Source of the DNA: Patescibacteria group bacterium
GTDB lineage: Bacteria; Patescibacteriota; Patescibacteriia; 2-01-FULL-39-33
Assembly: GCA_041650895.1 (NCBI GenBank)
Contig: JBAZKF010000001.1
Coordinates: 428,132-492,131, forward strand
DNA: 64,000 nt
Direction of reading: 5' to 3'
Numbering within the stretch: the first letter of the stretch is position 1; each line of letters opens with the position of its first letter. This document shows, piece after piece, positions 3,292-44,259 of this stretch. The notes beneath the pieces are model-generated. The model was not told where the DNA came from. It searched no databases and was given only the letters and a program-made list of their open reading frames with translations. Both the position numbers and the translations under genes were made by a program.

Positions 3292-4359
3292 ATGTACCGC
3301 TATCTTGCTGTCAGCTTAATAACAATCACCTGCTTGCTTGTCATTGGAATCGGCGTCGCTTGGGCGCCGATTTTTCCTCTGGCCAAACAACTGACTGCTA
3401 CGCCGCCGACTGATTCACTGCCAAAAACACCGGCCATAACCACCACCACGCTCATCTTCGGCGGCGACGTCATGCTCTCGCGCAATGTCGGACAGAAAAT
3501 GACCAAATACCAAGATTGGTCCTGGCCGTTTACAAACATCGCCGGATTGCTGGCCGACGCCGACTTAGCCATTATCAACTTAGAATCGCCATTTACCATC
3601 GGCGGTTCGCATTTGGTCAAAACCGGATCATTTTCTTTTAATGCCGACCCGCAAGCGCTGGCCGGGTTGATTCAAGCCGGCATTGACGTAGTTGCTCTGG
3701 CCAATAATCATGTTTTAAACCAAGGCAAAAAAGGCATAATTGATACGCGAAAACTTTTAGCGGACAACAATATTTCTTATACAGGTGCCGGTCTGAATGA
3801 GGCCGAAGCCGGACGTCCGGCAATCAAAGAAATAAACGGGACTAAATTCGGTTTTTTGTCTTACGCCTATCCGAACGATTATTCCGTAGCCGGAACTTCC
3901 ACTCTCGGACTGGCCGGCATGGATATAAACAAAATGACAACGGCTGTTACGGAACTGAAAACAGAAGTTGATCTGGTGGCAATACTGATACATGCCGGGG
4001 CCGAATACACCAACAAGCCCAACAAACAGCAAATCGCCTTTGCCCATGCGGCCATTGACGCCGGAGCCGACTTAGTGATCGGCCATCACCCGCACTGGGT
4101 ACAGATTACGGAAATTTATAATGGCCGGCCGATTCTGTATTCTTTGGGAAATCTAATCTTTGATCAGATGTGGTCGCTGGAAACCCAACAAGGCGCCTTA
4201 GCCGAAATAACAGTGACTGATAAACAGCTAGATTCAATCAGAATCATTCCGATTAAGATTATTGATTACGGCCAAGCGACCCTGGCTACCGGCACGGAAA
4301 AAGAATTGATTTTAAACAGGCTGGGATTGGATAATGAGATTATTAACATTAATAATTAA
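3292..4359 (+). CDS. CapA-family (poly-gamma-glutamate synthesis / metallophosphatase-like) protein
   Basis: N-terminal TM segment, then LIFGGDVMLSRNVG ... LANNHVLNQG ... GHHPHW motifs of the CapA/PGA_cap family. Confidence 0.65.
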   Translation: MYRYLAVSLITITCLLVIGIGVAWAPIFPLAKQLTATPPTDSLPKTPAITTTTLIFGGDVMLSRNVGQKMTKYQDWSWPFTNIAGLLADADLAIINLESPFTIGGSHLVKTGSFSFNADPQALAGLIQAGIDVVALANNHVLNQGKKGIIDTRKLLADNNISYTGAGLNEAEAGRPAIKEINGTKFGFLSYAYPNDYSVAGTSTLGLAGMDINKMTTAVTELKTEVDLVAILIHAGAEYTNKPNKQQIAFAHAAIDAGADLVIGHHPHWVQITEIYNGRPILYSLGNLIFDQMWSLETQQGALAEITVTDKQLDSIRIIPIKIIDYGQATLATGTEKELILNRLGLDNEIININN

Positions 4360-9038: not shown

Positions 9039-10853
9039 TTAATAACCGCCACCATCACTGTAGCTGGAACTGGAACCGCTGTAACCGCCACCATCACTGT
9101 AGCTGGAACTGGAACCGCTGTAACCGCCACCATCACTGTAGCTGGAACTGGAACTGGAGCTGCTGGAACTGCTACCGCCCCAGTCGCTCCAACCGCTGCT
9201 GGAACCACTACTGGAACTACCGGAGTCAAAAGAAAACGATGACGTACTCTGGCTGTCCTGATAATCGTCGTAGGCCTTTTTGGCCGTCCGACCGGTGTCA
9301 TCAGCCAACTGATATGCTTGATCGGCATTAAAAATAGCCGATTCATAGCACCTGTTAGAGGCGTCACGACGAGCTTGGGCCAAACGGCTTTTAGCGGAAT
9401 CAAAATCCGACTGAGCCGACGAAGAATGACTGCCATAGTTTTCAATATCATCTTCGTTGTCATCAATCATTCGTTCAGCTCGACGTTCTTGATCCGGCCA
9501 AGCCAAGCGATAGGACTCCAAATCATCGACTAACCTCGTAAACTCCCGCAATAAACGATTGGCTTGAGACAAGCCATTGTCGCCACTGGTTATTTCCGAA
9601 TCAGCCAACCTGTAATCTTGATCCTCAGTCGCGATTCTTTGAGCTTCAGCCAAGTGTTCTTTGGCCCGCAAAAGATTATCGCCGGCCAATGTCAGATTGT
9701 CAGCCACTTGCGACCAAACGGTCTTCGCATGAAGATTAAGTTTGGCGCGAAGCTGTCGTGCCTGATTAAGGCCGTTTTGAGAAGCCATAATATTAGAAGC
9801 CAAAATCGCGCCACTATTCCTAACCTTCTCCGCCAGTATTAGTTGCCGATCAGCGCCTTTAATCGCTTCATTAGCCAAATCATACGCCTTAAGCGCACTA
9901 CTGAAGACCAAAAGGAGATCGTACTTGCCTTCTTCAACGATCACTAGTGAAGCCTCGGTGGCGACTGCAAACAACTGCTCCGCCTGACGCAAGTCGGCGT
10001 ATGACTGCTTAAGCGCCTTATCCGCTGTCAGCGGACCTTTGGCAACTAAGTTATCAAGATAGTTGTTAGCCGACGAAATACTGTTTTGAGCCGACGCCAA
10101 CTGTTCTCCCGCGCCAGTCTGCGCCTTCTTGTAGGAATCAAGATTATTCATCACCTTAAAGATGGAAGCATCAACAGAGCCGACAACCAAAAAACTGGCG
10201 CTCAATAGTTCACGCGCCTGCCTAGGGTCGCCTAACCCGGAGCCTTCAACCGGCAATAGACCGGAAATTATTTCCAGGTTGCCGGAGACCTTGTCAAGAC
10301 TGATTTTTGCCGCCGATAACTCTTCATTATTCAAAGCGACATACTTGGACAAATAGTCGCCGCCCTCGCTGGACAGCCTTTCCATGGCCAAAATATAATC
10401 GCGATTTTTTTCTGCCAAATCATTTTGTAGCTGGCTTAATTCCTGGCGAGCATCCTCGGCCAATTTTTCAATCGCCGACAGCTGCTCGTTGGCATTCTCT
10501 ATCGCCCGTTGCGATGCCTCAATAAGTTTTTCGGCTTCAACCGCCTGCGCCTTCTTTTGCTTGGCCTTGCCGGTCGCGTCAGCCTGCTTGATATCTTCCT
10601 CGGCCTGGCTGAGATTGATTCGCCCCGATTCAATTAAGTCGGAAATCGGGACTGAATATTCCGGTTTATACCAACTGGAAACAGCACCGAATTCAGACTG
10701 GAATCGCTCAATAGCCAAAGACTGTCCTATCGCCTCCGCCTTGACGTTGGCCAAACACTTGTCGGCCAAACGCTTAGGCGCGGACATGACCAGCCATAGG
10801 CCGGACGTCATCGCAATAACCAGCAGAATAATCAACACTTTTGACTTGTTCAT
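9039..10853 (-). CDS. Membrane-anchored long coiled-coil protein with a Ser/Gly/Tyr-rich repetitive C-terminus
   Basis: N-terminal TM segment, about 450 aa of heptad-like sequence, and a C-terminus SSSYSDGGGYSGSSSSYSDGGGY encoded by tandem 39-bp repeats. Confidence 0.55.
   Translation of the reverse strand: MNKSKVLIILLVIAMTSGLWLVMSAPKRLADKCLANVKAEAIGQSLAIERFQSEFGAVSSWYKPEYSVPISDLIESGRINLSQAEEDIKQADATGKAKQKKAQAVEAEKLIEASQRAIENANEQLSAIEKLAEDARQELSQLQNDLAEKNRDYILAMERLSSEGGDYLSKYVALNNEELSAAKISLDKVSGNLEIISGLLPVEGSGLGDPRQARELLSASFLVVGSVDASIFKVMNNLDSYKKAQTGAGEQLASAQNSISSANNYLDNLVAKGPLTADKALKQSYADLRQAEQLFAVATEASLVIVEEGKYDLLLVFSSALKAYDLANEAIKGADRQLILAEKVRNSGAILASNIMASQNGLNQARQLRAKLNLHAKTVWSQVADNLTLAGDNLLRAKEHLAEAQRIATEDQDYRLADSEITSGDNGLSQANRLLREFTRLVDDLESYRLAWPDQERRAERMIDDNEDDIENYGSHSSSAQSDFDSAKSRLAQARRDASNRCYESAIFNADQAYQLADDTGRTAKKAYDDYQDSQSTSSFSFDSGSSSSGSSSGWSDWGGSSSSSSSSSSSYSDGGGYSGSSSSYSDGGGYSGSSSSYSDGGGY
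9044..9160. repeat. Three tandem copies of a 39-bp unit (accgccaccatcactgtagctggaactggaaccgctgta) inside the 3' end of the 604-aa gene
   Basis: Perfect direct repeats read directly from the sequence. They encode SSSSYSDGGGYSG units on the minus strand. Confidence 0.9.
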
Positions 10854-31930: not shown

Positions 31931-32109
31931 CTCTTCTCTGAGCACAATGCCGTCACCCGCGAGGTGACGGCTTTTAAATTACAAAAAATACCCCTTAACC
32001 GGGGTATTTCATAATCGCAACCGTGATTTGTTATACAAATTCTATTAGATTATAAAAAGGCTACTGACCAGAAGGGTTGAAAGAATCAAGCCAAATTTTA
32101 GTTGAAAAC

Positions 32110-33069
32110 TCAACGTATCGCCCCGGCATCCGCCTGTGTTTCTCTTTTCATTTCTTCTATCTGCCTCTTAATATCCTCACTGGTTGGCGGTTGGTTTCCT
32201 ATTGACTGATTTAGCTCACCATCAACAGGCCCATTAGCACCTTCAGAACGCCCGGAAGCAGAAGCGTCATCTAAGGTAGCACTCGAATCAGAAGAATTGA
32301 ATGATTCTTTATCGGGGTTTTGTAACGCCATTTCGGCTTTATTAATTTCTAACAAATCCATAGCGTTTTTATAATCAATCATACTGCAACTGAAAGAAAA
32401 ATCACCGTCATAGATAGCTCCCATCGCGGTTTCATTACATTTCCTATCAATAATTATATGATCTCCGTCCGCTAACAAATCATGGCCCGGGGAATTGTCC
32501 AATTGATAGACTCCGGAACAGCCATGATGAGGCAAACCCGGACTCGCCTCTTCATCAATAATAACGCTGACCCACTGCTTATTTTCCGTATCAGGGTCAG
32601 TGACAATATACTTTCCGTTATAATCAATTCTTAGCGGTAATTCATTGCGGCTATAAACCTCCGTTAAGGATCCGTATTCTTTAACCGGAACGTCAATTTT
32701 TATGCCGCCCAATGATTGGCCCAAAATGCCATCATATTTATATTTCAATTGCCGAGACATGATAAATAACTTGTTTGACTCTTTATTATAAAGTATTAAT
32801 TCCTTGGAAGAATAATCAACTATGCCGTTAGCGGCAAAAGCCTTATCCGAATGAACGCTGTTTATCTTCATCTCTCCCAAGCAAAAAGAATACTTGGATG
32901 TATCTTTTAATTCGTCATACCACAGTTGCTCGATTTTCCGTTGATCTTCTTGGGCGCTATCGGCCGATTCGTTTAACCCGAAGGGATTTGATTTGGCAAC
33001 GTAGATTCCGCCAATAATAATCGCGGCCGAAGCAGTAGCTAATCCTCCGATGAGTAATTCTTTTTTCAT
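32110..33069 (-). CDS. Hypothetical secreted or membrane-anchored protein
   Basis: N-terminal hydrophobic segment MKKELLIGGLATASAAIIIGGIYVA. The ORF opens at 33099. Confidence 0.45.
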   Translation of the reverse strand: MKKELLIGGLATASAAIIIGGIYVAKSNPFGLNESADSAQEDQRKIEQLWYDELKDTSKYSFCLGEMKINSVHSDKAFAANGIVDYSSKELILYNKESNKLFIMSRQLKYKYDGILGQSLGGIKIDVPVKEYGSLTEVYSRNELPLRIDYNGKYIVTDPDTENKQWVSVIIDEEASPGLPHHGCSGVYQLDNSPGHDLLADGDHIIIDRKCNETAMGAIYDGDFSFSCSMIDYKNAMDLLEINKAEMALQNPDKESFNSSDSSATLDDASASGRSEGANGPVDGELNQSIGNQPPTSEDIKRQIEEMKRETQADAGAIR

Positions 33070-33079
33070 AGAATTGAAG

Positions 33080-33583
33080 TTATAAACCGCAGACCTCACT
33101 CATAGACGGACAATCATTGGTGGCAATCATGCAGTCTATTTTTTTCTTATCCCATTTAGCGCATTCGCCCAAGCAGTAATTATAGCCGTCATTGAATACT
33201 GTTTCGCTGACATTAGGTACCAAAGTCAAACAATTCATAACATATTTATTGCACGCCGCTTCACAATCATTTTTAGCTACCGGCAAATTAGGTTCATTGA
33301 TCTCCGGGATCAATTCAGTCATCCTATCTTTGGGTTTGGCTAGCATCCCCGAACAATCGGAGGCGGTCTTAATTTTGTCTTTAGTCGCCTGATCCCAATT
33401 GACGCATTGGCTCCGGCATTCCTCCCCTGATGCAAACTCAGCGCATTTGCTGTTGGCTTGAGCGCAGAGACTGGCACAATCATTGCTGACCTCCGAGCCA
33501 GTTATTTTGTTTGAATTATCAGTACAACCAGAAACTACAAAAACGGCTGATAATAGAACACAAAGATACAGATATTTAGTCAT
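33080..33583 (-). CDS. Cys-rich putative lipoprotein
   Basis: Signal peptide plus a lipobox-like VVSGC. The mature part has 18 Cys. Confidence 0.5.
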   Translation of the reverse strand: MTKYLYLCVLLSAVFVVSGCTDNSNKITGSEVSNDCASLCAQANSKCAEFASGEECRSQCVNWDQATKDKIKTASDCSGMLAKPKDRMTELIPEINEPNLPVAKNDCEAACNKYVMNCLTLVPNVSETVFNDGYNYCLGECAKWDKKKIDCMIATNDCPSMSEVCGL

Positions 33584-33653
33584 GGTTTTGCTTATTATTT
33601 ATAATATAATCCTACCATTATTACAAAATATATTCAATATTTTTATAAAAAAA

Positions 33654-33826
33654 TACTCCGGCTTATGGGAGTATTTTTAATTTCTGGGTCACGACCGTGA
33701 TTTGATCATAGAAATACTGAGCGATCCAGAGGAAATAAGGTTAATTAAAAAGAAGTTGGAGAGAATTAATGAATTGGTTCCTTTTTTATAATATGGCATA
33801 GCTCAACTTGATGACTATACCATATT
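33654..33826 (+). repeat. Fic-associated module copy R1: hairpin plus T-run (33654-33678), peptide-coding-like repeat (33681-33791), and the palindrome AATATGGCATAG-N13-CTATACCATATT (33790-33826)
   Basis: Shared with 34964-35084 and 39184-39373. See findings. Confidence 0.6.
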
Positions 33827-34892
33827 AGATAATTTTGTATCTTACACTCCGCCCAGCGCCTAATCGTTCCACTTTTTTCATCTCCAGTAGTTTATTTAGA
33901 GCTTGAACGACTGTCGGTGCTGGTATTTTTAACTTCTCTCGCAACTCTTTCGGCGTTACCATTTTATGATCTTTTAAATAACTCCAGATTTCCGACTGCC
34001 TAACCGATAATTGATTCTCAATATTTTCCTTGTCTAATAATCCTAAAGCTAATTTAGTTTGCTTTAAAATAATTTCTAGAAAATATACCAGCCAAGGCGT
34101 GATATCCTCTATTGATTTGCCACGTTTTCTTTGTGACTTATTTAGTGCCAAATAATAATTCTCTTTATTATCCTCGATTAGTTTTTCATGCGATACATAG
34201 GGCAGATACTCGTAGCCAGCCTTTAAAAGCAGTAGATTAGTCAAAACCCGCGAAGTCCTGCCATTACCGTCCTGAAAAGGGTGAATTGAGAGGAATTCAA
34301 AAACAAAATTAGCGATAATTAATAACGAGTTGATTTGTTTGTTTTCTAATTCCTCTTTAGTCCAATCGACTAATTCTCCCATTTCTTTAACAACTAAATG
34401 CGGCTTAGTTGTTTCAAACAATACTCCAACTAATTTACCGCTAGCATTATGTGCTTCGACGCGATTATCGCCGAATTTATATTGACCCTTATGCCGAACA
34501 TCTTTTTCTGAATATTTTAAAAGTTCGGCATAAAAATGCTTAATTAAATTTTCTGATAAGTGAAGATTTTTATAAGATTCAAAAATATTAGCTAATAATT
34601 CAGCATAACCGGCGACTTCTTGTTCATCTCTGGTTACCAGTTTAGTGATTTTTAAGCCTTTCAGTAATTTTTCTACCTGCTCATCTGTTAATTTAGCTCC
34701 CTCAATACGCGTGGAAGCTCCAGAGGAGGTTACAATAACTGATTTCTTTAATCGACTTAAAGATTGGGGCGATAAGTTAGCGCCCATTTTCCATTGACCC
34801 TTCAATTCGTCAATCTGGCTGATTAAACCGTAAATCTTATTGACCATTGTCGGCTCCAATTCTAATCTCTTACTTAGTTTATTTTTATTCAT
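33825..34892 (-). CDS. Fic-family (filamentation induced by cAMP / AMPylase-type) protein, class II, with an N-terminal inhibitory helix
   Basis: Active-site loop HPFQDGNGRTSR and the N-terminal inhibitory motif SGASTRIEGA ((S/T)xxxE(G/N)). Confidence 0.8.
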   Translation of the reverse strand: MNKNKLSKRLELEPTMVNKIYGLISQIDELKGQWKMGANLSPQSLSRLKKSVIVTSSGASTRIEGAKLTDEQVEKLLKGLKITKLVTRDEQEVAGYAELLANIFESYKNLHLSENLIKHFYAELLKYSEKDVRHKGQYKFGDNRVEAHNASGKLVGVLFETTKPHLVVKEMGELVDWTKEELENKQINSLLIIANFVFEFLSIHPFQDGNGRTSRVLTNLLLLKAGYEYLPYVSHEKLIEDNKENYYLALNKSQRKRGKSIEDITPWLVYFLEIILKQTKLALGLLDKENIENQLSVRQSEIWSYLKDHKMVTPKELREKLKIPAPTVVQALNKLLEMKKVERLGAGRSVRYKII

Positions 34893-34963
34893 ATATTTTG
34901 ACTATATTGCTTATATATTCAATTATATACGATTATATTTGATTTATCAATAGATAACAAAAA

Positions 34964-35084
34964 AGATGCAATAAATGCATCTTTTTTAAATCTGGGTCAC
35001 GACCGTGATTTGCTCATAGAAATCCTATCGAATCCGGAGGAGATTGGCTTAATTAAGCGGAAGTTGGAGAGAATTAAAGAATAA
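34964..35084 (+). repeat. Fic-associated module copy R2: hairpin plus T-run and the peptide-coding-like repeat. No palindrome.
   Basis: About 85% nt identity to R1 over about 90 bp. Confidence 0.6.
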
Positions 35085-35144
35085 GTACCGATTTAAAGTC
35101 TCAACAAAACGGGTAAAGCATGAAATTTATTCTCGAGATATTTA

Positions 35145-36257
35145 TTATTTTAATAATTTACTAGCTAAACAGGTTGCGATCGGCATAGACAGCATTAATC
35201 CAATACTGCCGACTAATGTCCTAACGATTTCCGTAGCTATCGCATCGTTATTGATGACTTGAAAAAAATCAACAGGATCGGTAGGACTAAGATAAAATAA
35301 CATTAAAAGAGGCAGGGAAACGCCGACATAAGTCAAAAACAACGTATTAACAATAGCCCCCAAGTGAGTTTGCCCGACCTTGAGACCCATCTTAAAAACT
35401 TGATTTGATGGCAAGGATGAGTTTGCCAATTTAATCTGCGCCACTGCTTCAATCTGTCCCAAAATAATATCATCCAATACGCCAACAGTTCCTATCAAAA
35501 TTCCAGCTAATAATAATCCTTGAAAATTTATACTTCCAATACTGGTTCCAATTAAAAGTGTTGCTTCTTCTGTAGAGAAGCCAGATAATCTAGTCAACCA
35601 AGTAAATAAATATGCTAATAATAATGTTAAAATTAATGAAATAAAAACTGTTAATACCGCTAAATGTGCTTTTCTATTAAAGCCATCCGTCAAATAAATA
35701 ATTATAACCATAATTAATAAAGATCCTAGAACAGCGACAATTAGAGGATTAGCGTCAGCAAGTAATTGAGGAATAATCAGAAATATAATGACTACGAAAC
35801 TTAAAATTAAGCTCAACAATGATTTTATTCCCTTGCGCCCGCTAACTAGAATGGTTAATAAAACAAATATAACTGCTAACAGATAAAGCCAGCCAGTACG
35901 GATATAGTCAGTGACAAAATACTGCTCATCGCCATTTTCTCTGCTTATAACATCAACATAAACTTTATCCCCAGCGTTATAAGCGCCGACCGAAACAACA
36001 TCAAAATCTCCAATTCCAAAAGAAGTCACTTCCTTATTCTTTAGAGGTCCGCTTAACGCTTTTAATAATAAATTTTGTTGGATTGCTACTGATCCATCTT
36101 CACGATTAAACTTTTTTTCTTCCAACACCTTAATGACTTTTGCCTTAAAAGTGTTATTTTGGTTTTTGGTTTGAGCATTAACAAAAAATGGAGTGAACAC
36201 TAAAAAAGCTAAAATAAATACTATTGATAAATTTACATAGCTATTGTTCATAAACAA
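35145..36257 (-). CDS. Polytopic membrane protein (possibly YibE/F-like)
   Basis: Signal/TM segment, a periplasmic-like domain, then 6-7 TM helices. Confidence 0.4.
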   Translation of the reverse strand: MFMNNSYVNLSIVFILAFLVFTPFFVNAQTKNQNNTFKAKVIKVLEEKKFNREDGSVAIQQNLLLKALSGPLKNKEVTSFGIGDFDVVSVGAYNAGDKVYVDVISRENGDEQYFVTDYIRTGWLYLLAVIFVLLTILVSGRKGIKSLLSLILSFVVIIFLIIPQLLADANPLIVAVLGSLLIMVIIIYLTDGFNRKAHLAVLTVFISLILTLLLAYLFTWLTRLSGFSTEEATLLIGTSIGSINFQGLLLAGILIGTVGVLDDIILGQIEAVAQIKLANSSLPSNQVFKMGLKVGQTHLGAIVNTLFLTYVGVSLPLLMLFYLSPTDPVDFFQVINNDAIATEIVRTLVGSIGLMLSMPIATCLASKLLK

Positions 36258-36260
36258 CTA

Positions 36261-37085
36261 TTAAATTAGATTCATTAAATAAATTACCAAGAACATAAAA
36301 CCTAAACCCAAAATAGTCCCCAAAATACTTAAATGCCCATGTCCCAATCTTTTGGCGGCAGGAATTAATTCATCAATGGCAACATAGAACATAATACCAG
36401 CAACAGCGGCTAATAAAGAACCCATCAATAAGGGATTCGGGAAATTAATAAATAGAAGAAGGGCTAATATTGCGCCGATTGGCTCTGCAATGCCAGCAAT
36501 AAATGAATAAAAAATACCGCGCCAACGACTCCCAGTCGAACAATAAATAGGTAATGCAACACAAAATCCCTCCGGTATATTATGTATAGCAATTGCTAAA
36601 GCCATTATTAACCCTAAATATGGATTATACACAGCTGAAGTAAAGGTTATAACACCCTCTGGCAAATTATGCAATCCAATTGCAATTGCAACAAATACAC
36701 CAGTAGCCATCAATTTTTTATTTCCGATTTTATCACATTTTATTGAATTATTTGATTTTTTTTCGATCAAACAAATATTATCATCATGTTTGCTACCACG
36801 ATCTAAAAAATAATGTGTCAGCATATCAAGAAAATAAGCAATCAGCGCGCCCAAAGCAAAATAAAAAATTACAATCTGTTTATCATGTAAAATATTTAAT
36901 GATTCTGGTAATAATTCAAAAAAAGATAAGTAAACCATAATACCAGCCGAAAAACCCAACCCCAAGGCGACGCGTTTTAATGGTAAACCCTTAAAGGCAA
37001 AAACAAAAAAGGCACCCAATAAGGACGCCATTCCCGCAAAAAAGGAAACGGTTAGAGCAAATTGAATATTAGACAAATTTAACAT
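36261..37085 (-). CDS. ZIP-family divalent metal (zinc) transporter
   Basis: Paired HNLPEGV / HNIPEGF signature motifs of ZupT-like ZIP transporters. Confidence 0.75.
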   Translation of the reverse strand: MLNLSNIQFALTVSFFAGMASLLGAFFVFAFKGLPLKRVALGLGFSAGIMVYLSFFELLPESLNILHDKQIVIFYFALGALIAYFLDMLTHYFLDRGSKHDDNICLIEKKSNNSIKCDKIGNKKLMATGVFVAIAIGLHNLPEGVITFTSAVYNPYLGLIMALAIAIHNIPEGFCVALPIYCSTGSRWRGIFYSFIAGIAEPIGAILALLLFINFPNPLLMGSLLAAVAGIMFYVAIDELIPAAKRLGHGHLSILGTILGLGFMFLVIYLMNLI

Positions 37086-37146
37086 AAATAATTTTGTTTA
37101 TTACGTTTTTTTTCCACTGCACCGACATTAATACTAATTAATCAAT

Positions 37147-37419
37147 CTATATTTCACTTTTAAACAAATTTTTAATACTACAAACAATCCACTGCCAATG
37201 TAAAATTAAGTGGATAACAACTAAAACAATTAAAATAATTCCCGTCCAATCATGAATTGATGAATATACTGACTTAGTTATCCCGAAAAATTCTTGATAA
37301 CGGCCCTGTCTAACGCCCTCCGGTAAAAAGAAAAATATGATTAATCCCGTTTTAGCAACCACTAAAAAGCTAATAAAAGCTAATAAATCGACTAAAAAAT
37401 TAAGTTTGTTTTTTTTCAT
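37147..37419 (-). CDS. Small membrane protein (90 aa)
   Basis: Two or three hydrophobic helices. No motif recognised. Confidence 0.4.
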   Translation of the reverse strand: MKKNKLNFLVDLLAFISFLVVAKTGLIIFFFLPEGVRQGRYQEFFGITKSVYSSIHDWTGIILIVLVVIHLILHWQWIVCSIKNLFKSEI

Positions 37420-37640
37420 ATAATTTATTCTAGATTAATAATTATTTATTGATATTTATACATAAATTATAGCATAAATACTAAATATAATTCTAATTTA
37501 ATATGTAATATAACTTTATTGCCCCTCTATCAATTAACTAATAAAACTTGACAAATTTTAGTTTTGGGTATATACTCATAATAGGTAACCTTAAGAAAGG
37601 TCGGATTATCGAGTATAATTAACTTAAATTACACAAAAAT

Positions 37641-37838
37641 ATGCCAAATATGAATGGAACTGGCCCACGTGGAGAAGGCCCTAAAACTGGCCGAGGATTA
37701 GGTAAATGCTCTGGCACTAATGGTGCCCAATCTACAGCCAACGACAACGAAAACCGCGGCTTAGGACGTGGCAGAAATAACTGCCCCAGCAGAGGCTTAG
37801 GCTTAGGACGTGGCTGCCGCAATAGAGTTTCTAATTAA
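37641..37838 (+). CDS. Small Gly/Arg-rich protein with scattered Cys (65 aa). Low confidence.
   Basis: The ORF lies immediately upstream of the DUF134 gene. The composition is repetitive (RGLG repeats). Confidence 0.25.
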   Translation: MPNMNGTGPRGEGPKTGRGLGKCSGTNGAQSTANDNENRGLGRGRNNCPSRGLGLGRGCRNRVSN

Positions 37839-37922
37839 TCCATCAATTCTATATGGAAGCGGATTTGAAGGAGCTAAAACTCTTGGCTCCTTAAACCCGT
37901 TTAACAAATCACCAATAAACTT

Positions 37923-38210
37923 ATGTGCCCCAGACCACACAACTGTCGAAAAGTATCCTTCAACCCCAACATTACTTACTTTAAACCTCAAGGAATGCCC
38001 ATGAGGCGACTTGAAGTTGTAGAACTTACAACCGAAGAACTTGAAGCCTATCGCTTAAGACACATCAAAGATCTTGATCAGCAAGAAGCGGCGGAGAAAA
38101 TGAACACTTCTGCCAGCACCTACCAAAGAATTTATTACTCCGCTGCAGCCAAAATCGCTGATGCTTTAATTAACGGCAAGGCGATTAAAATTATTAATAA
38201 TTGCCAATAA
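37923..38210 (+). CDS. DUF134/UPF0251-family predicted DNA-binding protein
   Basis: MCPRPHNCRKVSFNPNITYFKPQGMPMRRLEVVELTTEELEAYRLRHIKDLDQQEAAEKMNTSASTYQRI parallels the UPF0251 consensus (MPRPRKCRRV...YFKP). Confidence 0.65.
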   Translation: MCPRPHNCRKVSFNPNITYFKPQGMPMRRLEVVELTTEELEAYRLRHIKDLDQQEAAEKMNTSASTYQRIYYSAAAKIADALINGKAIKIINNCQ

Positions 38211-38211
38211 T

Positions 38212-39165
38212 ATGAAAAAAAATAAAAGAATCATCTTTTCAATTCTAGCAATTATCGTGATCTTTATAGTCGCTATATTTACCACGATTAATCTTAACCA
38301 AAGATTACAAAAAGACAATAAAAAACCCATTAATGCCATGCTAATGCTGATTGAATTTGAAAAAATTAATGGCATTCTTCGGTGGGAAAAAGAGTTGGAT
38401 AATCGCAAATTGACGGCTCTTGTTAAAGTTCAAGATAATGTTCTTAAAGAATATCCGGAAGTATTCAAGCGCCTAGCTAATAAAGGATATGAAATCGCTG
38501 GCGGTTACGATGAGGCTTCTTTTTGGGACATGCCATACGATCAACAATATGAACACATCAAGGAATCAAAAGAGTTGGTAGAGAAAATTACCGGTAAAAC
38601 TATGCGAGTTTTCGGCAGTCGTTATTTCGCTTATGATGAGAATACCTTAAAGGCTGCTAACGCCTTAGGTATTGAATATATTTTAGGACGAGGAGTGAAT
38701 GATGTTGAAGCGGTTATCTATCAGCCGATTGAGTATAAAACTAAAATAATTTCAGTCACCAACGTTGATGTCGGAGAAATGGGACGCGGATCATTGTGTG
38801 ATTATAGTTTATGGGCAAGGGGCTCTAATGCTAAAGACTTTGGTACCATATTAACTGAAAGCATCGCTAAAAATCCAATGAATATGATTCTTGTTTCTCA
38901 TGCTTATCTTGGCGGCACTAGGCTGGAATGGTGGCAGGAATATGAGAAAGCGCTTAAATCTGACCGAATTAAATGGGCCAGCTTTAATAATTGGCTAGAA
39001 AATCAAAAAGTAGTCACAATGGCCAACGCTAAAATTCCTTTAAATAAAGAGGTAAAATACGTATCGCCGAAACCAGCTAAAGAAATACAAGATTATGAAC
39101 CGATTCCTGGGGTTGAAACTATTCGCAATACAACTACTTCTGAAGATTTAATGATTTGCCAATAA
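38212..39165 (+). CDS. Hypothetical membrane-anchored protein
   Basis: N-terminal TM segment. No motif recognised. Confidence 0.4.
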   Translation: MKKNKRIIFSILAIIVIFIVAIFTTINLNQRLQKDNKKPINAMLMLIEFEKINGILRWEKELDNRKLTALVKVQDNVLKEYPEVFKRLANKGYEIAGGYDEASFWDMPYDQQYEHIKESKELVEKITGKTMRVFGSRYFAYDENTLKAANALGIEYILGRGVNDVEAVIYQPIEYKTKIISVTNVDVGEMGRGSLCDYSLWARGSNAKDFGTILTESIAKNPMNMILVSHAYLGGTRLEWWQEYEKALKSDRIKWASFNNWLENQKVVTMANAKIPLNKEVKYVSPKPAKEIQDYEPIPGVETIRNTTTSEDLMICQ

Positions 39166-39183
39166 GATATAAATTTATAAAAA

Positions 39184-39373
39184 CATCCTAAGTAACTAGG
39201 ATGTTTTTAATTCTAACAAATTCCCATCTTGGGTCACGACTATGATTTGCTCATACAAATACTTAACGATCCGAAAGAGACAGGGCTGATTAAGCAAAAA
39301 CTCAGGAATATTAAGGATTTGCACAAAATTCCTTAATATGGTATAGTGTCATTAGTTAAACCATACCATATTA
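39184..39373 (+). repeat. Fic-associated module copy R3: hairpin plus T-run, the peptide-coding-like repeat (39217-39336), and the palindrome AATATGGTATAG-N15-CATACCATATT just upstream of the fic2 ATG
   Basis: Shared architecture with R1. Confidence 0.6.
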
Positions 39374-39379
39374 AGCTAT

Positions 39380-40321
39380 ATGACCTATTTAAACCAACAA
39401 TTAGAAAAACGGATTAATGAGAAGTTTGAGCAACTGCAAAGGTTGCGCCCCCTGCCACCTACGGCTGTCGCTAAATTGCGAGAGCAGTTTTCGATTGAAA
39501 TGACCTATAATTCCAATGCTATTGAGGGTAATCGCCTGTCACTCAAAGAAACTTATTTGGTAATTGCCGAGGGCATTACTATTAAGGGCAAGTCATTCAA
39601 AGATCATTTGGAAGCCAAAGACCATTATGAGGCATTAAACTACCTTTACGATCTAATAGAACACGGTAAAAGGCATACCGTCTCAGAGTCACTAATCAGA
39701 AACCTTCAGCAATTAATCGTTAAGGATACTGACCCACAAGACGCTGGCGTTTATCGCACTGGTAATGTTGCCATAACCGGCTCTAGTCATAAACCGCCAG
39801 AATCTTTTGAGGTGCCTGAATTAATGCGTCAATTAGTTGATTGGGTGAGAAATAACAAGAATAAACTGCATCCGATTGAATTGGCGGCGATCGCCCACCA
39901 CAAATTAGTTAATATCCACCCATTCAACGATGGTAATGGTCGTACGGCTAGATTATTCATGAATTTACTTCTAATGCAAGACGGCTACCCATTAGTCATG
40001 ATTCTAAAAAATGATCGTAAAAAGTATTACCTAACATTAGAAAAAGCCGATAAAGGTAACTTAGCGCCATTTGTGGCTTTTATCGCTCAGGCGATTGAGC
40101 GCTCACTTAATATTTACTTAAAAACTCTAGCGCCGACTAAATCAAAATCAGAAAAGTATATGCCACTGTCAGAAATTAGCCAACAAACAACCTTTTCAGA
40201 CAAATATCTAAATCTCTTGGCAAGACAGGGAAAAATTGAGGCTCATAAAGAAGGCAGGATTTGGGTGACAAACATGGACGCTATTAATAATTATCTTAAA
40301 AATCGACAAAGACAAAAATAG
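39380..40321 (+). CDS. Fic-family protein, class II (second copy)
   Basis: HPFNDGNGRTAR active-site loop and the N-terminal inhibitory motif SNAIEGN. Confidence 0.8.
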   Translation: MTYLNQQLEKRINEKFEQLQRLRPLPPTAVAKLREQFSIEMTYNSNAIEGNRLSLKETYLVIAEGITIKGKSFKDHLEAKDHYEALNYLYDLIEHGKRHTVSESLIRNLQQLIVKDTDPQDAGVYRTGNVAITGSSHKPPESFEVPELMRQLVDWVRNNKNKLHPIELAAIAHHKLVNIHPFNDGNGRTARLFMNLLLMQDGYPLVMILKNDRKKYYLTLEKADKGNLAPFVAFIAQAIERSLNIYLKTLAPTKSKSEKYMPLSEISQQTTFSDKYLNLLARQGKIEAHKEGRIWVTNMDAINNYLKNRQRQK

Positions 40322-40344
40322 TTAATCGGCTTAATATTTTCTAT

Positions 40345-41019
40345 ATGTCGAAAATTAAAACTATAACTTCTATATGGGAGAAGATTTATGACAAAGAAGG
40401 CGAGTCGTATAAATACTATGATATTTTAGAGACGCCTCACCCAGATTTGGAGCAGGTTATAAAAGAATTTAAAAAGAGTAAGGCTAAAAAAGTATTGGAC
40501 CTTGGCTGTGGTGCCGGTCGTAATGCATTATATTTGGCACAGAATGGATTTACTGTTTATGGTATAGATAATGCTCCCACTGGTTTAAAAATATTAAGAA
40601 AAAAATTAAAAGAACGTGGACTGGTCGCTGATTTAAAATTAGAAGATGTTTATAAACCATTACCATATAAGGATGATTTTTTTGATGCTCTAATTAGTAT
40701 CCAAGTTATCCAGCATGCTAAAGAAGCTACAATTTTGAAAGCGATTAAAGAAATCACTCGCATTGTTAAGCCGGGCGGAATAATTTTTATTACTGTATGT
40801 GGGCGCTATTCTAAGGGCAAAGTAAGATTATTTTTAGTTAAAACTGCCAAAAAAATTGCTCAAAATACTTATTTACCTACGCAAGGTAATGAGACTGGAT
40901 TGATACATTTTATTTATAATAAGGATTTGATTAAAAAACATTTTAGTAATTTTAAAATATTAAAACTTTGGCGAGACAATAAAGACTATTTTGCCTTTAT
41001 TGCTAGCAATAATAAATAG
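40345..41019 (+). CDS. Class I SAM-dependent methyltransferase
   Basis: Motif I VLDLGCGAGRN and motif II/post-I context. Confidence 0.75.
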   Translation: MSKIKTITSIWEKIYDKEGESYKYYDILETPHPDLEQVIKEFKKSKAKKVLDLGCGAGRNALYLAQNGFTVYGIDNAPTGLKILRKKLKERGLVADLKLEDVYKPLPYKDDFFDALISIQVIQHAKEATILKAIKEITRIVKPGGIIFITVCGRYSKGKVRLFLVKTAKKIAQNTYLPTQGNETGLIHFIYNKDLIKKHFSNFKILKLWRDNKDYFAFIASNNK

Positions 41020-41132
41020 TTAGTTGTTCAATTCCCTTTCTCCTTAACAAAAAAATACTCAATTTATGAGTATTTTTTTGTAGTTGTATTCATCTTTACT
41101 ATCAAATTTGATAGTTATGAATAGTACCGAAA

Positions 41133-41209
41133 TGGGTGGATGACCGGATTTGAACCGGCAGCCGCTCGGACCACAACCGAGTGCTCTAACCAATTGAGCT
41201 ACACCCACC
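41133..41209 (-). tRNA. tRNA-His (anticodon GTG) with the extra G(-1)
   Basis: Reverse complement G-GTGGGTG...anticodon stem CTCGG/CCGAG, loop TTGTGGT...CATCCACC. Confidence 0.75.
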
Positions 41210-41240
41210 ATTAATTTTAAGCAAGAACATCCTCTTCCAA

Positions 41241-41312
41241 TGCCCTCGACAGGATTCGAACCTGTATTAAAGGATCCGGAATCCTTCGTTCTATCCATTG
41301 AACTACGAGGAC
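41241..41312 (-). tRNA. tRNA-Arg (anticodon CCG)
   Basis: Reverse complement GTCCTCG...anticodon stem AAGGA/TCCTT, loop TTCCGGA...CGAGGGC. Confidence 0.75.
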
Positions 41313-41336
41313 CAAAAAAATAATTCAACTTTGCAG

Positions 41337-41409
41337 TGTCCGCGGCAAGAATCGAACTTGCGACCAATAGCTTAGAAGGCTACTGCTCTATCCACTGAGC
41401 TACGCGGAC
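41337..41409 (-). tRNA. tRNA-Arg (anticodon TCT)
   Basis: Reverse complement GTCCGCG...anticodon stem GTAGC/GCTAT, loop CTTCTAA...CGCGGAC. Confidence 0.75.
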
Positions 41410-41484
41410 ATACTTAAAAAAAACCGATTTCAGTAAGTCAAAGTATAGCACAAAAAATGACAGAAGTCAAGATTGATGCTACAT

Positions 41485-42534
41485 TTATTTTTTATTTTTA
41501 AACTTATATTCTTCAATCACCCGCTTATAAACCTTCTGATAACCGGAGACCATCTTTTTAACGCTGAAAAAATTCTCAGCTCTTTTACGAACTTCTTCCC
41601 GGCTGATCTTATTGATATTTTTTATCGCCTTAGTCATTCCACTCACATCATCAACTACATAACCGGTTTTCTTATCAGAAACTATCTCTGGAATCGCTCC
41701 GCGCCTAAAACCAATTACCGGCGTACCGCAGGCCATGGCCTCAATCATGACCATACCAAAAGGTTCTTCCCACTGCACCGGCATCAACAATGCTTTGGCA
41801 TTTCTAAGGTACTCAATCTTAGCATCAAAATCAGCCTCTCCAACATAACGGACTTTTTTTCCATCAACATGCTTTTCAATCTCATCATGCCAATAACCTT
41901 CATTAGGATAACTTTTACCGGCGATAATAATTTGAATGCCCGCCTTCTTGGCCGCCTCAATCGCCAAATGCACCCCTTTATCCTTGGTAATCCTTCCCAA
42001 AAATAACACATAATCTTTGGGCTTATCATTAAAAGTAAAAACATTAGTATCCACTCCATGATAAATATTCCCCACCCAATTGAGCTCTGGAAGAAACTTT
42101 CTTTGAGCTAACGAAAAAGAAATAAAATTGGCATTCTTAAATTGAAGTATTATAGGCTTAAGTTCGTCCTTAATTGGGCTATGAATAGAATTAACCACTG
42201 GGGTTGAAGTAACTAAATTGGAATAAAACAAACTTAAAATATTAAAATGGCTATGGACAATATCGTATTTAGAAGCATTGGCAAAACACTTAGAAATCAA
42301 CAAATGCAAGTAATACTTTTTTTCATCTTCAGAGAAAACTCCGTTAGACATGTGTTGGGGATGAACGGAGACCAAATCACAATTAACTTCCGAATTACCG
42401 GCCGCATAAAGTTCCACGCTATTGCCGGAGGAACGAGATAATTCATTACTCAGCATAGCCACATGAGAATAAATAGCATTATAAGCTCTAAGCTTAACAG
42501 GATAAATATTAGAAACTAATTGTGCAATATTCAT
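41485..42534 (-). CDS. Glycosyltransferase family 4 (GT-B)
   Basis: EPFGMVMIEAMACGTPVIG, the characteristic GT4 E-x7-E region. Confidence 0.75.
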   Translation of the reverse strand: MNIAQLVSNIYPVKLRAYNAIYSHVAMLSNELSRSSGNSVELYAAGNSEVNCDLVSVHPQHMSNGVFSEDEKKYYLHLLISKCFANASKYDIVHSHFNILSLFYSNLVTSTPVVNSIHSPIKDELKPIILQFKNANFISFSLAQRKFLPELNWVGNIYHGVDTNVFTFNDKPKDYVLFLGRITKDKGVHLAIEAAKKAGIQIIIAGKSYPNEGYWHDEIEKHVDGKKVRYVGEADFDAKIEYLRNAKALLMPVQWEEPFGMVMIEAMACGTPVIGFRRGAIPEIVSDKKTGYVVDDVSGMTKAIKNINKISREEVRKRAENFFSVKKMVSGYQKVYKRVIEEYKFKNKK

Positions 42535-42535
42535 A

Positions 42536-43735
42536 TTATTTTTTGATTATATTTTTAAAAAGTTTTATATAGTTCTTAAAAACTTTATCGCTTTGATGAT
42601 TAGAAAAAAGAAAGTTTTTAAGTTTGTCAGGCATCGGCTTATTAGCAATAGCTATTATTTCTTTAATGGCGGAGCTGGGATTATTAAAATCAATCACCCA
42701 ATCTTGAGCACCATACTTTTTAAAAGCATCTACAAAACCAACATTTTCTGAAATGGCAATCGGAGTTCCTGAAGCAACTGATTCCAATACTACAAACCCA
42801 GCAGTCTCAAATTGTGATGGTAAAATAATTAAATCCATTTTTTTGCAAAAATTTCTAATTCCAACCTGATTAGTTTGTGGAATTATTTTTATATTTTTAC
42901 GATATAGCTTTTTGATTTCTTTATTTTTAGATGTTCTAGGAATTTTTGTGATTGAATAAAATTTCCATGGCAAACCGTTTTTTCTAGCTTGTTCGGCTAA
43001 ATGAGCTATTAATTCATGATTTTTTATTCTATCCCATCTAGAAATAATTCCAATATTAAAAGTATCTTTTGATATTTTTTTGTTTTTTTTATCTGCCTTT
43101 TGATAAAAAGCAAAGTCTATGGGCAGGGGGATGATGTAAGTTTTATTTTTAGCAGTCTTAGCGACATGAGCATTAAAGTATCTTCGACTCCAATCATTTA
43201 AAAATATATCTGCGGCTGCGATTTTCGGTATCTCTTTTTCCATTCCTTCCATTATCTTGCGGCCAGCCAAACTAAAAAAATCTTTATAAACTCGTAATTC
43301 CTTAGTCCATATGCCAGCATGCTGAATTGCTACTGGGATCTTTTCTTTTTGTGCTGCTTTTAAAATCAGCCAATTAGAAATCGCGTAGCCGTTTAAAAAA
43401 ATAATATCCGGCTGAGTTTCTTTTATTAATCCGGCAATCAAATCAATGGCCGGCCCAAAAAGCTTTTCGGCATTTATTTTATTCGGCGTACGCCCAATTT
43501 TTTTTGCTAGCGATCCAGGAACTTTTAATCTATAATATTGTAAGCTTTTAGTTTTGTTAATGAATTTCAGCTCTGGAGACTCAATCGAATTAAATTCAAC
43601 GATTAAACCAAGCCAAACATGTCCTTCAATTTTTAAAAAACTTTTAAACCGTTTGGCAAAGTTAGCCGGCCCGCCCTTGGCGTGATGTTTGGAATTAGGT
43701 AAGTTATTGGAATAATCGTTAGATAAAATTAACAT
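42536..43735 (-). CDS. Glycosyltransferase family 4-like. The ORF opens at 43804 and the preferred start is MLILSNDY at 43735.
   Basis: QFETAGFVVLESVASGTPIA GT4 motif. Confidence 0.65.
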   Translation of the reverse strand: MLILSNDYSNNLPNSKHHAKGGPANFAKRFKSFLKIEGHVWLGLIVEFNSIESPELKFINKTKSLQYYRLKVPGSLAKKIGRTPNKINAEKLFGPAIDLIAGLIKETQPDIIFLNGYAISNWLILKAAQKEKIPVAIQHAGIWTKELRVYKDFFSLAGRKIMEGMEKEIPKIAAADIFLNDWSRRYFNAHVAKTAKNKTYIIPLPIDFAFYQKADKKNKKISKDTFNIGIISRWDRIKNHELIAHLAEQARKNGLPWKFYSITKIPRTSKNKEIKKLYRKNIKIIPQTNQVGIRNFCKKMDLIILPSQFETAGFVVLESVASGTPIAISENVGFVDAFKKYGAQDWVIDFNNPSSAIKEIIAIANKPMPDKLKNFLFSNHQSDKVFKNYIKLFKNIIKK

Positions 43736-43736
43736 G

Positions 43737-44259
43737 CTACTTTTGAAATTTATTAATTGATTCTTTAATAGCGTTAATCGCCTCATCCTTATCGCCGAAC
43801 TCATAAACCTTGCTCCATCTTTCCCTCTCCGATTCCTTGTAATGCTTAAAAAATAAACTGACCTTTTCTTTCAGTGACAAATCCAAGTCTGCCAAATCCT
43901 TAATTCTGGTGTAGCTTTCATTCATTTCATTTATTGGCACAACTAAAATCTTACTGTCCTGCCCCTGTTCATCTTCCATCTTCAGTATCGCCACCGGCCG
44001 GCAAACAATCACTCGGCCCTTCTGCAATACTTGATCGGAAAGAATCATCGCATCCAAAGTATCGCCGTCATCAGCCAGTGTTTCCGGAATAAGACCATAA
44101 CTGAAAGGAAACGGCAAAGTCGTCGCCAACACCCGATCCACTTCCAACGAACCTGTCTGTGGATTGAGCTCAAATTTTTTTATTTCGCCTAAAGGCACTT
44201 CTACTAAGATATTGACTTCCTCCGGCGCCTTGTCGCCGATTTTTAGTTTGTTAATGCCC
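43737..44259 (-). CDS. ppa: Inorganic pyrophosphatase
   Basis: EVPLGEIKKFELN...DGDTLDAMIL... family I PPase motifs. Start taken at MGINKLKIGD. Confidence 0.8.

Follow-up and report, generated by a model that had tools for sequence, protein, structure and literature searches.

Integron arrays (attC sites; the Vibrio cholerae repeats, VCR, of Vibrio) are made up of short cassettes with hairpin-bearing repeats of ~100-230 bp, a recombinase that acts in trans, and cargo, Fic-type genes included, in either orientation. Archaeal integrases of the Sulfolobus spindle-shaped virus (SSV) type have their crossover site in an open reading frame (ORF), so that integration splits the ORF and leaves start-less fragments beside a tRNA gene. 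The ssrA genomic islands of Dehalococcoides arose by tandem accretion at the gene for transfer-messenger RNA (tmRNA), with ~85 bp conserved around each repeat and a repeat that can fall inside a gene, dsiB (PMC3146451). Accretion of cis-mobilizable elements (CIMEs), including those related to ICESt1, and of integrative and mobilizable elements (IMEs) has been reviewed (PMC5704250). Here we analyse a window of 64,000 nucleotides (nt), by which we mean the whole stretch from 428,132 to 492,131 of contig JBAZKF010000001.1, from a metagenome-assembled genome (MAG) of a Patescibacteria group bacterium. It holds repeat copies (R0-R3) that enclose a small gene, the small ORF (sORF), together with hairpins (hp0-hp4), two Fic genes (fic1 and fic2) and a cluster of tRNA genes. 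An earlier note on this DNA had pointed to mobile cassettes, and the region does resemble a stack of exchangeable cassettes. We propose that small integrase-less cassettes accreted in tandem at tRNA-His, with the junction site within the start of the sORF, a reading whose chances we judge evenly balanced.

Motif and repeat searches agreed with the earlier note that three direct copies are present, each behind a hairpin. The 20-nt motif TGGGTCACGACYRTGATTTG had three exact matches in 64 kb (33685, 34993 and 39230, all on the plus strand), compared with 0.03 expected. Repeat search returned a 113-nt family at 33674-33786, 34982-35094 and 39219-39331, the latter two being 79% and 63% identical to R1. 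The hairpin upstream of each of R1-R3 is laid out as an A-run, a stem-loop and a T-run. With a profile built from the copies, we also found a decayed fourth copy, R0, which has lost TGGG and carries a 1-nt deletion and an early stop; with its own hairpin, the R0 unit spans 31983-32050. Hairpins and copies are as follows.

31983..32010, no strand: hp0, AAAAAATACCCC ttaacc GGGGTATTT, of a hairpin family shared with hp1 and hp4
32015..32050, plus strand: R0, decayed fourth sORF copy, TCGCAACCGTGATTTGTT-ATACAAAT (nhmmer E=0.008 and 0.024)
33647..33679, no strand: hp1, with A-run and T-run, bidirectional terminator-like
33684..33791, plus strand: R1 sORF copy, CTG plus 34 codons plus TAA, LGHDRDLIIEILSDPEEIRLIKKKLERINELVPFL
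34958..34988, no strand: hp2, hairpin
34992..35084, plus strand: R2 sORF copy, CTG plus 29 codons plus TAA, LGHDRDLLIEILSNPEEIGLIKRKLERIKE
39178..39209, no strand: hp3, terminator of the deacetylase gene, 20 nt upstream of R3
39229..39336, plus strand: R3 sORF copy, TTG plus 34 codons plus TAA, LGHDYDLLIQILNDPKETGLIKQKLRNIKDLHKIP

The frame LGHD(R/Y)DL... is open for 30-35 codons in each of R1-R3. None of the three begins with ATG, as had been noticed before; the first codons are CTG, CTG and TTG. The in-frame TAA ahead of the frame lies one codon before the CTG of R1 and five codons before the TTG of R3. The three copies seem to be unannotated in the GenBank record of the source MAG, since the accession numbers run seven steps from fic1 (MFA5124626) to fic2 (MFA5124633), a distance filled by six larger intervening genes and fic2 itself.

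We quantified selection on the frame using the first six copies found, three from the window and three from elsewhere. The plus-strand frame proposed in the earlier note had a ratio of nonsynonymous to synonymous differences per site (pN/pS) of 0.41 and zero stops, whereas four of the five alternative frames had pN/pS of ~1.0-1.2 and many stops. The fifth, an antisense frame with the same wobble positions, reached 0.43, but it contains stops. As a null, alignment columns were kept whole and permuted only among positions of equal consensus base. Restricted to R1-R3, whose discovery involved no protein-based ascertainment, this column shuffle gave an expected synonymous fraction of 0.22, compared with 0.46 observed (P=0.0002), and the excess persisted in codons 18-30 (P=0.0056). 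Overall, the synonymous excess had P=0.0002-0.001, including in sequences and codons free of discovery bias, and amino-acid replacements were more conservative than the null (BLOSUM; P=0.003-0.013). The codon-level conservation read from R1-R3 by eye is thereby borne out. R1 and R2 differ at 16 positions in 90 nt, with the AGC/TCG serine switch among them, and ~7.5 of these are synonymous by the Nei-Gojobori method (NG86). Judged by these substitution patterns, the peptide frame is under purifying selection now or was so recently.

These results bear on the possibility that the repeat is a non-coding element whose frame is accidental, either a minus-strand 3' untranslated region (UTR) or small RNA with a tRNA-like ...GACCCA end and a terminator, or a repeat of the miniature inverted-repeat transposable element or repetitive extragenic palindromic type. 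At most loci the unit does lie between the stop codon and the terminator of a minus-strand gene, and its strongest nucleotide conservation adjoins the terminator. An extended -10-like sequence, TGGTATAGT, read by eye in the arms of a palindrome described below, is also aimed into R1 and R3 in antisense. Against this, only the plus frame shows both the synonymous excess and the conservative replacements; it is open in 12 of 12 intact unique copies and starts with ATG in five of them and with CTG in another five, and the antisense frame holds stops. Consensus folding of both strands with RNAalifold gave no covarying conserved structure in the repeat, and Rfam gave no family for it at gathering or relaxed thresholds. 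We consider a non-coding element decidedly unlikely.

The repeats are copies of a stand-alone, lineage-restricted and very rare small gene of 30-43 codons, and R1-R3 and the decayed R0 are its paralogous copies. An exhaustive HMMER search of 1.84 billion representative proteins returned six relatives of 34-53 residues, none longer, and 5.8 billion nr90 clusters, searched with a word-seeded profile, yielded seven of 34-66 residues. Searching the window with the peptides (tblastn) gave no further copy and no parent gene. The earlier note had suggested that the repeats might be the 3' ends of a larger target gene, duplicated by insertion, and had proposed looking for its full-length parent by peptide homology. 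That idea drew on the missing ATG and on a frame that opens after a stop in R1 and R3. However, only tiny proteins were found, the longest having 53 residues in the first search and 66 in the second, and the relatives have ATG at the same codon. The relic explanation is thus refuted within public data, and we give it next to no probability.

Scans of DNA patterns recovered nothing from viral contigs or, in a first scan, from genome contigs, and two new sORF loci from metagenome contigs. In a second scan, with a relaxed sORF pattern, genome contigs gave one match, at 4213-4244 on the minus strand of L016, the Muribaculaceae MAG contig JAFLTL010000010.1 (DGHDIDLIIKVL). From the translated motif ...GPYDGHDIDLIIKVLEDIKDQKGP... 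we read it as part of a dxs gene, whose peptide resembles the sORF N-terminus, GHD.DL(I/L)I..L. Profile searches gave no family link, and we rejected it as a chance or pattern-driven match.

The peptide has the consensus (M/L)GHDRDLLI(E/Q)ILSDPEE(I/M)GLIKxKLxxIK. AlphaFold modelled it as two helices split at the conserved proline, with a predicted local distance difference test score of 87.5. Grand averages of hydropathy lie between -0.1 and -0.7, and each peptide has 10-14 charged residues, so it is predicted to be a soluble, charged helix-Pro-helix. Foldseek against the PDB gave only nonspecific helical matches for the model (best E=5), and scans of Pfam, NCBIfam and PHROGs gave nothing significant (best E ~0.05). 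The small toxins of type I toxin-antitoxin systems are hydrophobic, membrane-inserting peptides of 20-60 residues, and we rejected this class because the sORF peptide is charged. As a guess, it might be a small nucleic-acid-binding or recombination-accessory factor.

Coding alone does not account for the 5' end of the sORF. Among codons for identical residues, synonymous differences affected 4.9% in codons 2-9, 51% in codons 10-20 and 41% in codons 21-31; within R1-R3 alone they numbered 0 of 20 in the 5' codons versus 21 of 41 beyond. Nucleotide conservation of the first 27 nt, NTGGGTCACGACCGTGATTTGCTCATA, is therefore far above what the protein requires, and this block has a nucleotide-level function besides coding.

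The sequence upstream of this block varies by genome. In the relatives L001, L002, L007 (two units) and L013, a 113-nt leader precedes the sORF, consisting of a fragment resembling a tRNA 3' end (AGTTCAATTCCCTTTCTCCCTAA), a hairpin (AAAAAATACTC...GAGTATTTTT) and a 52-nt spacer. The window has the same leader without an sORF body, directly beside the tRNA genes.

41025..41133, plus strand: window leader, with fragment TGTTCAATTCCCTTTCTCCTTA at 41025-41046, hp4 at 41047-41081 and the 52-nt spacer; no sORF body
41117-41143: mini-ORF ATGAATAGTACCGAAATGGGTGGATGA (MNSTEMGG*, nine codons), which starts in the spacer and has its last 10 nt inside tRNA-His
41134..41409, minus strand: cluster of tRNA-His(gtg), tRNA-Arg(ccg) and tRNA-Arg(tct); putative junction partner, 3' end of tRNA-His

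From 41025 to 41138 the window is 91% identical to the leader of L007B, and homology stops at ATGGGT. Past this point, the window continues into the reverse complement of tRNA-His and L007B into an intact sORF. L013 carries the same leader, fused at TTGGGT to a second small ORF, ...FANPDNRIKHIANLRPYRRS, two more relatives of which occur in L002.

The fragment AGTTCAATTCCCTTTCTCCCTAA is laid out like a tRNA 3' end (G53, TTCAATT loop, C61, T stem and acceptor strand), and by eye it matches the 3' end of the window's tRNA-Gly(gcc) at 15 of 21 positions. We found no intact tRNA that ends in this way. In every genome compared, synteny breaks directly left of the fragment, within a few nt. It lies at the following sites.

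Window: 41025-41046
L001: ~811-835
L002: ~11476-11452, minus strand
L003: contig end
L007: ~1560 and ~2585
L013: ~676 and ~1829

To the left of the leader stand fic2 in L001, a methyltransferase gene in the window and L002, and a gene for a TrmB-like regulator in L003; in L007 and L013 this place is taken by a signal peptidase or membrane-protein gene. The 22-nt core of the sORF was compared with the last 24 nt of 12 tRNAs, and the best match was the window's own tRNA-His (P=0.0013 uncorrected, ~0.02 corrected). With the tRNA-His of L009 and L013 the core shares only GGGT, so an extended likeness to tRNA-His is suggestive, and for this genome alone. Two further interpretations of these sequences were rejected. 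The reverse complement of the repeat does not qualify as a tRNA, pseudo-tRNA or minihelix: its T-arm-like part does pair at 4 of 5 positions, but there is no acceptor partner and ARAGORN reported none. The other was an attC-like pairing between the tRNA-like fragment (GTTCAATTC) and the end of the spacer (GAATTGCAAC), which the second spacer type does not preserve.

Location and composition point in the same direction as the breakpoint. Three diverged genomes have sORF copies 3' of a tRNA-His-Arg-Arg cluster and on the opposite strand, at 1.8-9.1 kb from tRNA-His for R0-R3, 1.5 kb in L009/L010 and 0.1-3.6 kb in L013. As in tRNA-targeted islands, the DNA 3' of the tRNA gene is variable and compositionally deviant. 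The GC content of the window falls from 46-51% to 33-39% at ~32 kb, where R0 marks the left edge of the trough, and stays low until ~44 kb (42-51% in the flanks overall). R0, the copy farthest from the tRNA genes, is the decayed one. The low-GC trough (~32000-44000) also runs past the tRNA cluster and over two family-4 glycosyltransferase genes (41485-43804, minus strand), and the variable region may thus straddle the tRNA genes.

In the proposed accretion at tRNA-His, the first 27 nt of the sORF would be a recombination site that recombines with the 3' end of tRNA-His (junction ATGGGT), and a recombinase encoded elsewhere would act on integrase-less mini-islands. Hairpin, 27-nt site and sORF body would together form the tRNA-distal edge of each cassette. 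Four cassettes would then be stacked on the 3' side of tRNA-His.

32.0-33.7 kb: R0 to hp1, 1.7 kb, two secreted proteins
33.7-35.0 kb: R1 to hp2, 1308 bp, fic1
35.0-39.2 kb: R2 to hp3, 4.2 kb
39.2-41.1 kb: R3 to leader, 1905 bp, fic2 and a methyltransferase gene

Each insertion would put an sORF body right behind a terminator hairpin, contributed by the tRNA or by the preceding cassette. This would explain the constant presence of a terminator hairpin, variable in sequence, ahead of the sORF, as well as a frame that opens just past a stop with a haphazard first codon (ATG, CTG or TTG), the first base of which may be A, C or T. The base just past the tRNA-His 3' end varies similarly, being A in the window, T in L009 and C in L013. 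Our guess is that, for the peptide to be made, the site must be linked to an arm bringing both a start and a promoter. If insertion is site-specific, its target would be the 3' end of tRNA-His and not a protein gene. The cassette scheme is the simplest explanation for the 5' freeze, the breakpoint, and the location and composition of the region at tRNA-His.

Compared with tRNA and tmRNA islands and CIMEs, the locus is alike in that variable cargo is stacked 3' of a stable-RNA gene with each block edged by a repeated junction, and also in the ~85-110 bp of extra conservation around the repeat, the presence of blocks without recombination genes and the decay of distal copies. It differs from such islands in having no integrase detected in 64 kb, in the tiny size of the cassettes (1.3-4.2 kb) and in mobility that is here putative. 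Moreover, exact identity of the repeat to tRNA-His covers only 5-6 nt, where such islands have a 20-bp copy of the RNA 3' end, and the gene whose 5' end forms the repeat is a conserved small one under purifying selection, not an integrase gene. As with SSV-type split genes, the putative crossover site lies within an ORF next to a tRNA gene. Unlike them, the ORF encodes a peptide of 30-43 codons and not an integrase, and the site is at the start codon, so the body stays whole.

Several observations weigh against tandem accretion at tRNA-His. Pfam detected no recombinase, integrase or transposase domain in ~50 of the largest ORFs of the window. Neither an empty site nor a circular junction was found, and exact-protein look-ups gave only the same arrangement. 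Exact identity between core and tRNA-His in the window extends over just 5-6 nt (ATGGGT/TGGGT), and the sORF of L002 has no tRNA-His within 11 kb. The internal junctions of the window are short, with the hairpin abutting the core, whereas long attP-like leaders are predicted. The R3 body is only 75% identical to that of L007B while the leader is 91% identical, which implies that the two halves do not stem from one recent event. The 35.0-39.2 kb block contains housekeeping-looking genes and is partly syntenic with L008: the gene pair DUF5320-DUF134 (37641-38210 in the window, 447-1011 in L008) is followed in both by hairpin and sORF, with a polysaccharide deacetylase gene in between in the window. 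This segment may therefore be ancestral chromosome rather than cargo. Finally, the whole data set amounts to 12 unique copies from ~8 lineages, all uncultivated.

Several of the same observations would suit an ordinary multi-copy chromosomal gene that spread by segmental duplication and homologous recombination, with no site-specific mobility. The hairpin would then be a neighbour's terminator, and the 27-nt freeze would reflect translation initiation, mRNA structure or a cis-antisense relation to a convergent 3' UTR. The coding signature is real and the family stands alone, there is no recombinase among the ~50 ORFs nearby, and most copies converge on a minus-strand gene for which the hairpin would serve as terminator. 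The synteny of DUF134, hairpin and sORF between window and L008 fits as well, as does a weak plus-strand stem, CTGGGTC/GATCCAG, with one covarying pair. An ordinary gene leaves unexplained why leader homology ends exactly at ATGGGT and then leads, by genome, into tRNA-His, the first sORF or the second. Likewise, it does not account for the clustering 3' of tRNA-His in three diverged genomes, for cargo that swaps at the unit edges, or for a low-GC trough beginning at R0, and CTG as first codon in 5 of 12 copies would be odd under selection for expression. We regard the ordinary gene as a serious possibility, if on the unlikely side.

Cargo also varies among the relatives, in which the sORF neighbours encode signal peptidase, a kinase-like ATPase, membrane proteins, YibE/F, a TrmB-like regulator, a DEAD helicase and proteins of no recognised type. 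The methyltransferase gene of the window is present or absent at its position in relatives.

40345..41019, plus strand: S-adenosylmethionine-dependent methyltransferase, between fic2 and the leader

The slot behind the leader can hold another small gene. This second sORF family encodes peptides of ~38-41 residues, (M/L)G..A(V/I)RT..LE...FA(D/N)P.NRI..I..LRPYRRS, and is absent from the window. Its copies are pairwise 48-53% identical.

L002 10575-10462, minus strand: second-family copy
L002 5120-5019, minus strand: second-family copy
L013 1938-2051, plus strand: second-family copy

The L013 copy and the L002 copy at 10575 align over their full length without indels, and both fill the slot of the GHDRDLL sORF, following the hairpin or same leader and starting with NTGGGT. 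Just after the second-family stop there is a tandem 9-mer, TGGTGTCCA TGGTGTCCA at ~10455-10430 (minus strand) in L002 and TGCTGTCCG TGCTGTCCA at ~2057-2080 in L013, which could be a protein-binding site.

That one slot behind one leader can also be filled by this second family, of the LRPYRRS type, suggests a family of sites embedded in sORFs. A trans-acting integron-like system in Patescibacteria, anchored at tRNA-His and using a ~27-nt core inside the start of a small gene, would be an extension of this idea that we consider unlikely. In such a system, each recombination would reassign the upstream arm, and with it ATG or CTG/TTG and a promoter or a terminator. Whether the cassette is excised, tandem or integrated would then bear on expression of the peptide. 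The locus is like integron arrays in its short cassettes parted by a hairpin-containing unit and in the similarity of repeats within the array. It is unlike them in that the window yielded no integrase domain or attI, a conserved peptide is encoded in the unit, and the array is anchored at a tRNA gene. Unlike the imperfect palindrome of attC (R''/L''-L'/R'), only the terminator hairpin was seen in a scan of the region, and the sORF body, when folded without the hairpin, formed only stems that were weak (-4 to -6 kcal/mol) and lacked covariation.

The Fic genes were previously labelled toxin-like and assigned, with hairpin, peptide repeat and palindrome, to a single module. The relevant features are these.

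33789..33827, no strand: palindrome 1, TAATATGGCATAG - 13 nt - CTATACCATATTA, with the R1 stop and the fic1 stop in its two arms
33825..34892, minus strand: fic1, Fic domain, C-terminal winged helix-turn-helix (HTH), active-site motif HPFQDGNGRTSR, inhibitory motif STRIEG
34922..34950, minus strand: fic1 promoter-like site, TTGATA-17-TATAAT, 11 of 12 matches (consensus match only)
39318-39347: promoter-like TTTGCA-18-TATAGT with extended TG, overlapping the left arm of palindrome 2 and the R3 tail
39334..39373, no strand: palindrome 2, TAATATGGTATAG - 14 nt - CCATACCATATTA, ending 6 nt before the fic2 ATG
39380..40321, plus strand: fic2, Fic domain, HPFNDGNGRTAR, SNAIEG, C-terminal HTH-like tail

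Both proteins contain a Fic domain (PF02661; Pfam E=2.6e-15 for fic1 and 1.4e-24 for fic2) with the active-site motif HxFx(D/E)GNGRxxR. Both also carry their own N-terminal inhibitory motif, (S/T)xxxE(G/N), as STRIEG at residue 60 of fic1 and SNAIEG at residue 45 of fic2, which speaks against calling them toxins. In class I Fic toxin-antitoxin systems of the VbhT/VbhA type, this motif is on a separate small protein beside the Fic gene. The locus recalls that arrangement in that a small helical ORF adjoins a Fic gene. It departs from it in that the motif is on the Fic proteins themselves, was found in none of the five sORF peptides tested, and the sORF mostly occurs without a Fic gene. It follows that the sORF is not a Fic antitoxin of a known kind.

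The palindrome has a history of its own. The arms, TAATATGG(C/T)ATAG, occur in the window only at 33789-33801/33815-33827 and 39334-39346/39361-39373, in agreement with the earlier observation that one palindrome overlaps the fic1 stop and the other sits just upstream of the fic2 ATG. Palindrome 2 shortens the tail of R3, which is of the type seen in L007B and L015 (KDLHKIAPAN). In another genome of the candidate phyla radiation (CPR; L018-L023), a Fic2 homologue with 70% identity lies between the genes for arginyl-tRNA synthetase and a phosphatase. At 3953-3995 of L018, and likewise in L019-L023, TTAATATGGCATAG-14 nt-CCATACCATATTAA stands 5 nt upstream of the ATG of this homologue, and no sORF is detectable at the locus (best nhmmer E=0.25). 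These results imply that the palindrome belongs to the Fic gene, where it is likeliest to be a promoter or autoregulatory operator of the HTH-bearing Fic2 family. Palindrome 1 is an orphan copy, as no Fic2-type gene follows it. The supposed module is thus a composite of two unrelated units, one being hairpin plus sORF and the other the Fic2 palindrome.

We also considered whether the peptide could be an antitoxin or regulator co-mobilised with Fic, with hairpin, peptide and palindrome as one module. R1 and R3 both end in a palindrome beside a Fic gene, the promoter-like site of fic2 overlaps the R3 tail, fic2 lies just upstream of the unit in L001, and L002 has a third Fic gene one gene off. 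The part of this proposal that concerns a small helical peptide, mostly without ATG, holds up. Specific co-mobilisation with Fic does not: three of the 12 unique sORF copies are directly beside a Fic gene, one is on the far side of fic1, and eight have no Fic gene on either flank. The Fic2 family has >4000 close members in many CPR lineages and other phyla (nearest relative, 85% identity), normally without the sORF, compared with seven sORF proteins. Furthermore, fic1 and fic2 are 26% identical and stand in opposite orientation relative to the repeat unit, and the palindrome without an sORF and the self-inhibited Fic proteins described above count against this explanation too. A Fic-specific accessory is therefore largely refuted and, in our estimation, very unlikely. 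We infer that fic1 and fic2 are ordinary self-inhibited Fic genes, passengers or cargo in two blocks.

If the sORF is an ordinary small gene after all, the locus reduces to a minor annotation gap. Whichever model applies, it defines a new small-protein family, apparently unannotated in the GenBank record of the MAG, and the palindrome with arms of 12-13 nt is a conserved 5' element of a widespread Fic-HTH family, probably an autoregulatory operator. If cassettes do accrete at tRNA-His, this would be another case of a recombination site overlapping a small ORF under selection. It would also imply that in the ultra-small genomes of CPR/Patescibacteria, where recognisable mobile elements are few, accessory genes are shuffled at a single hotspot, with Fic enzymes, methyltransferases, surface proteins and transporters exchanged as very small cassettes without an integrase.

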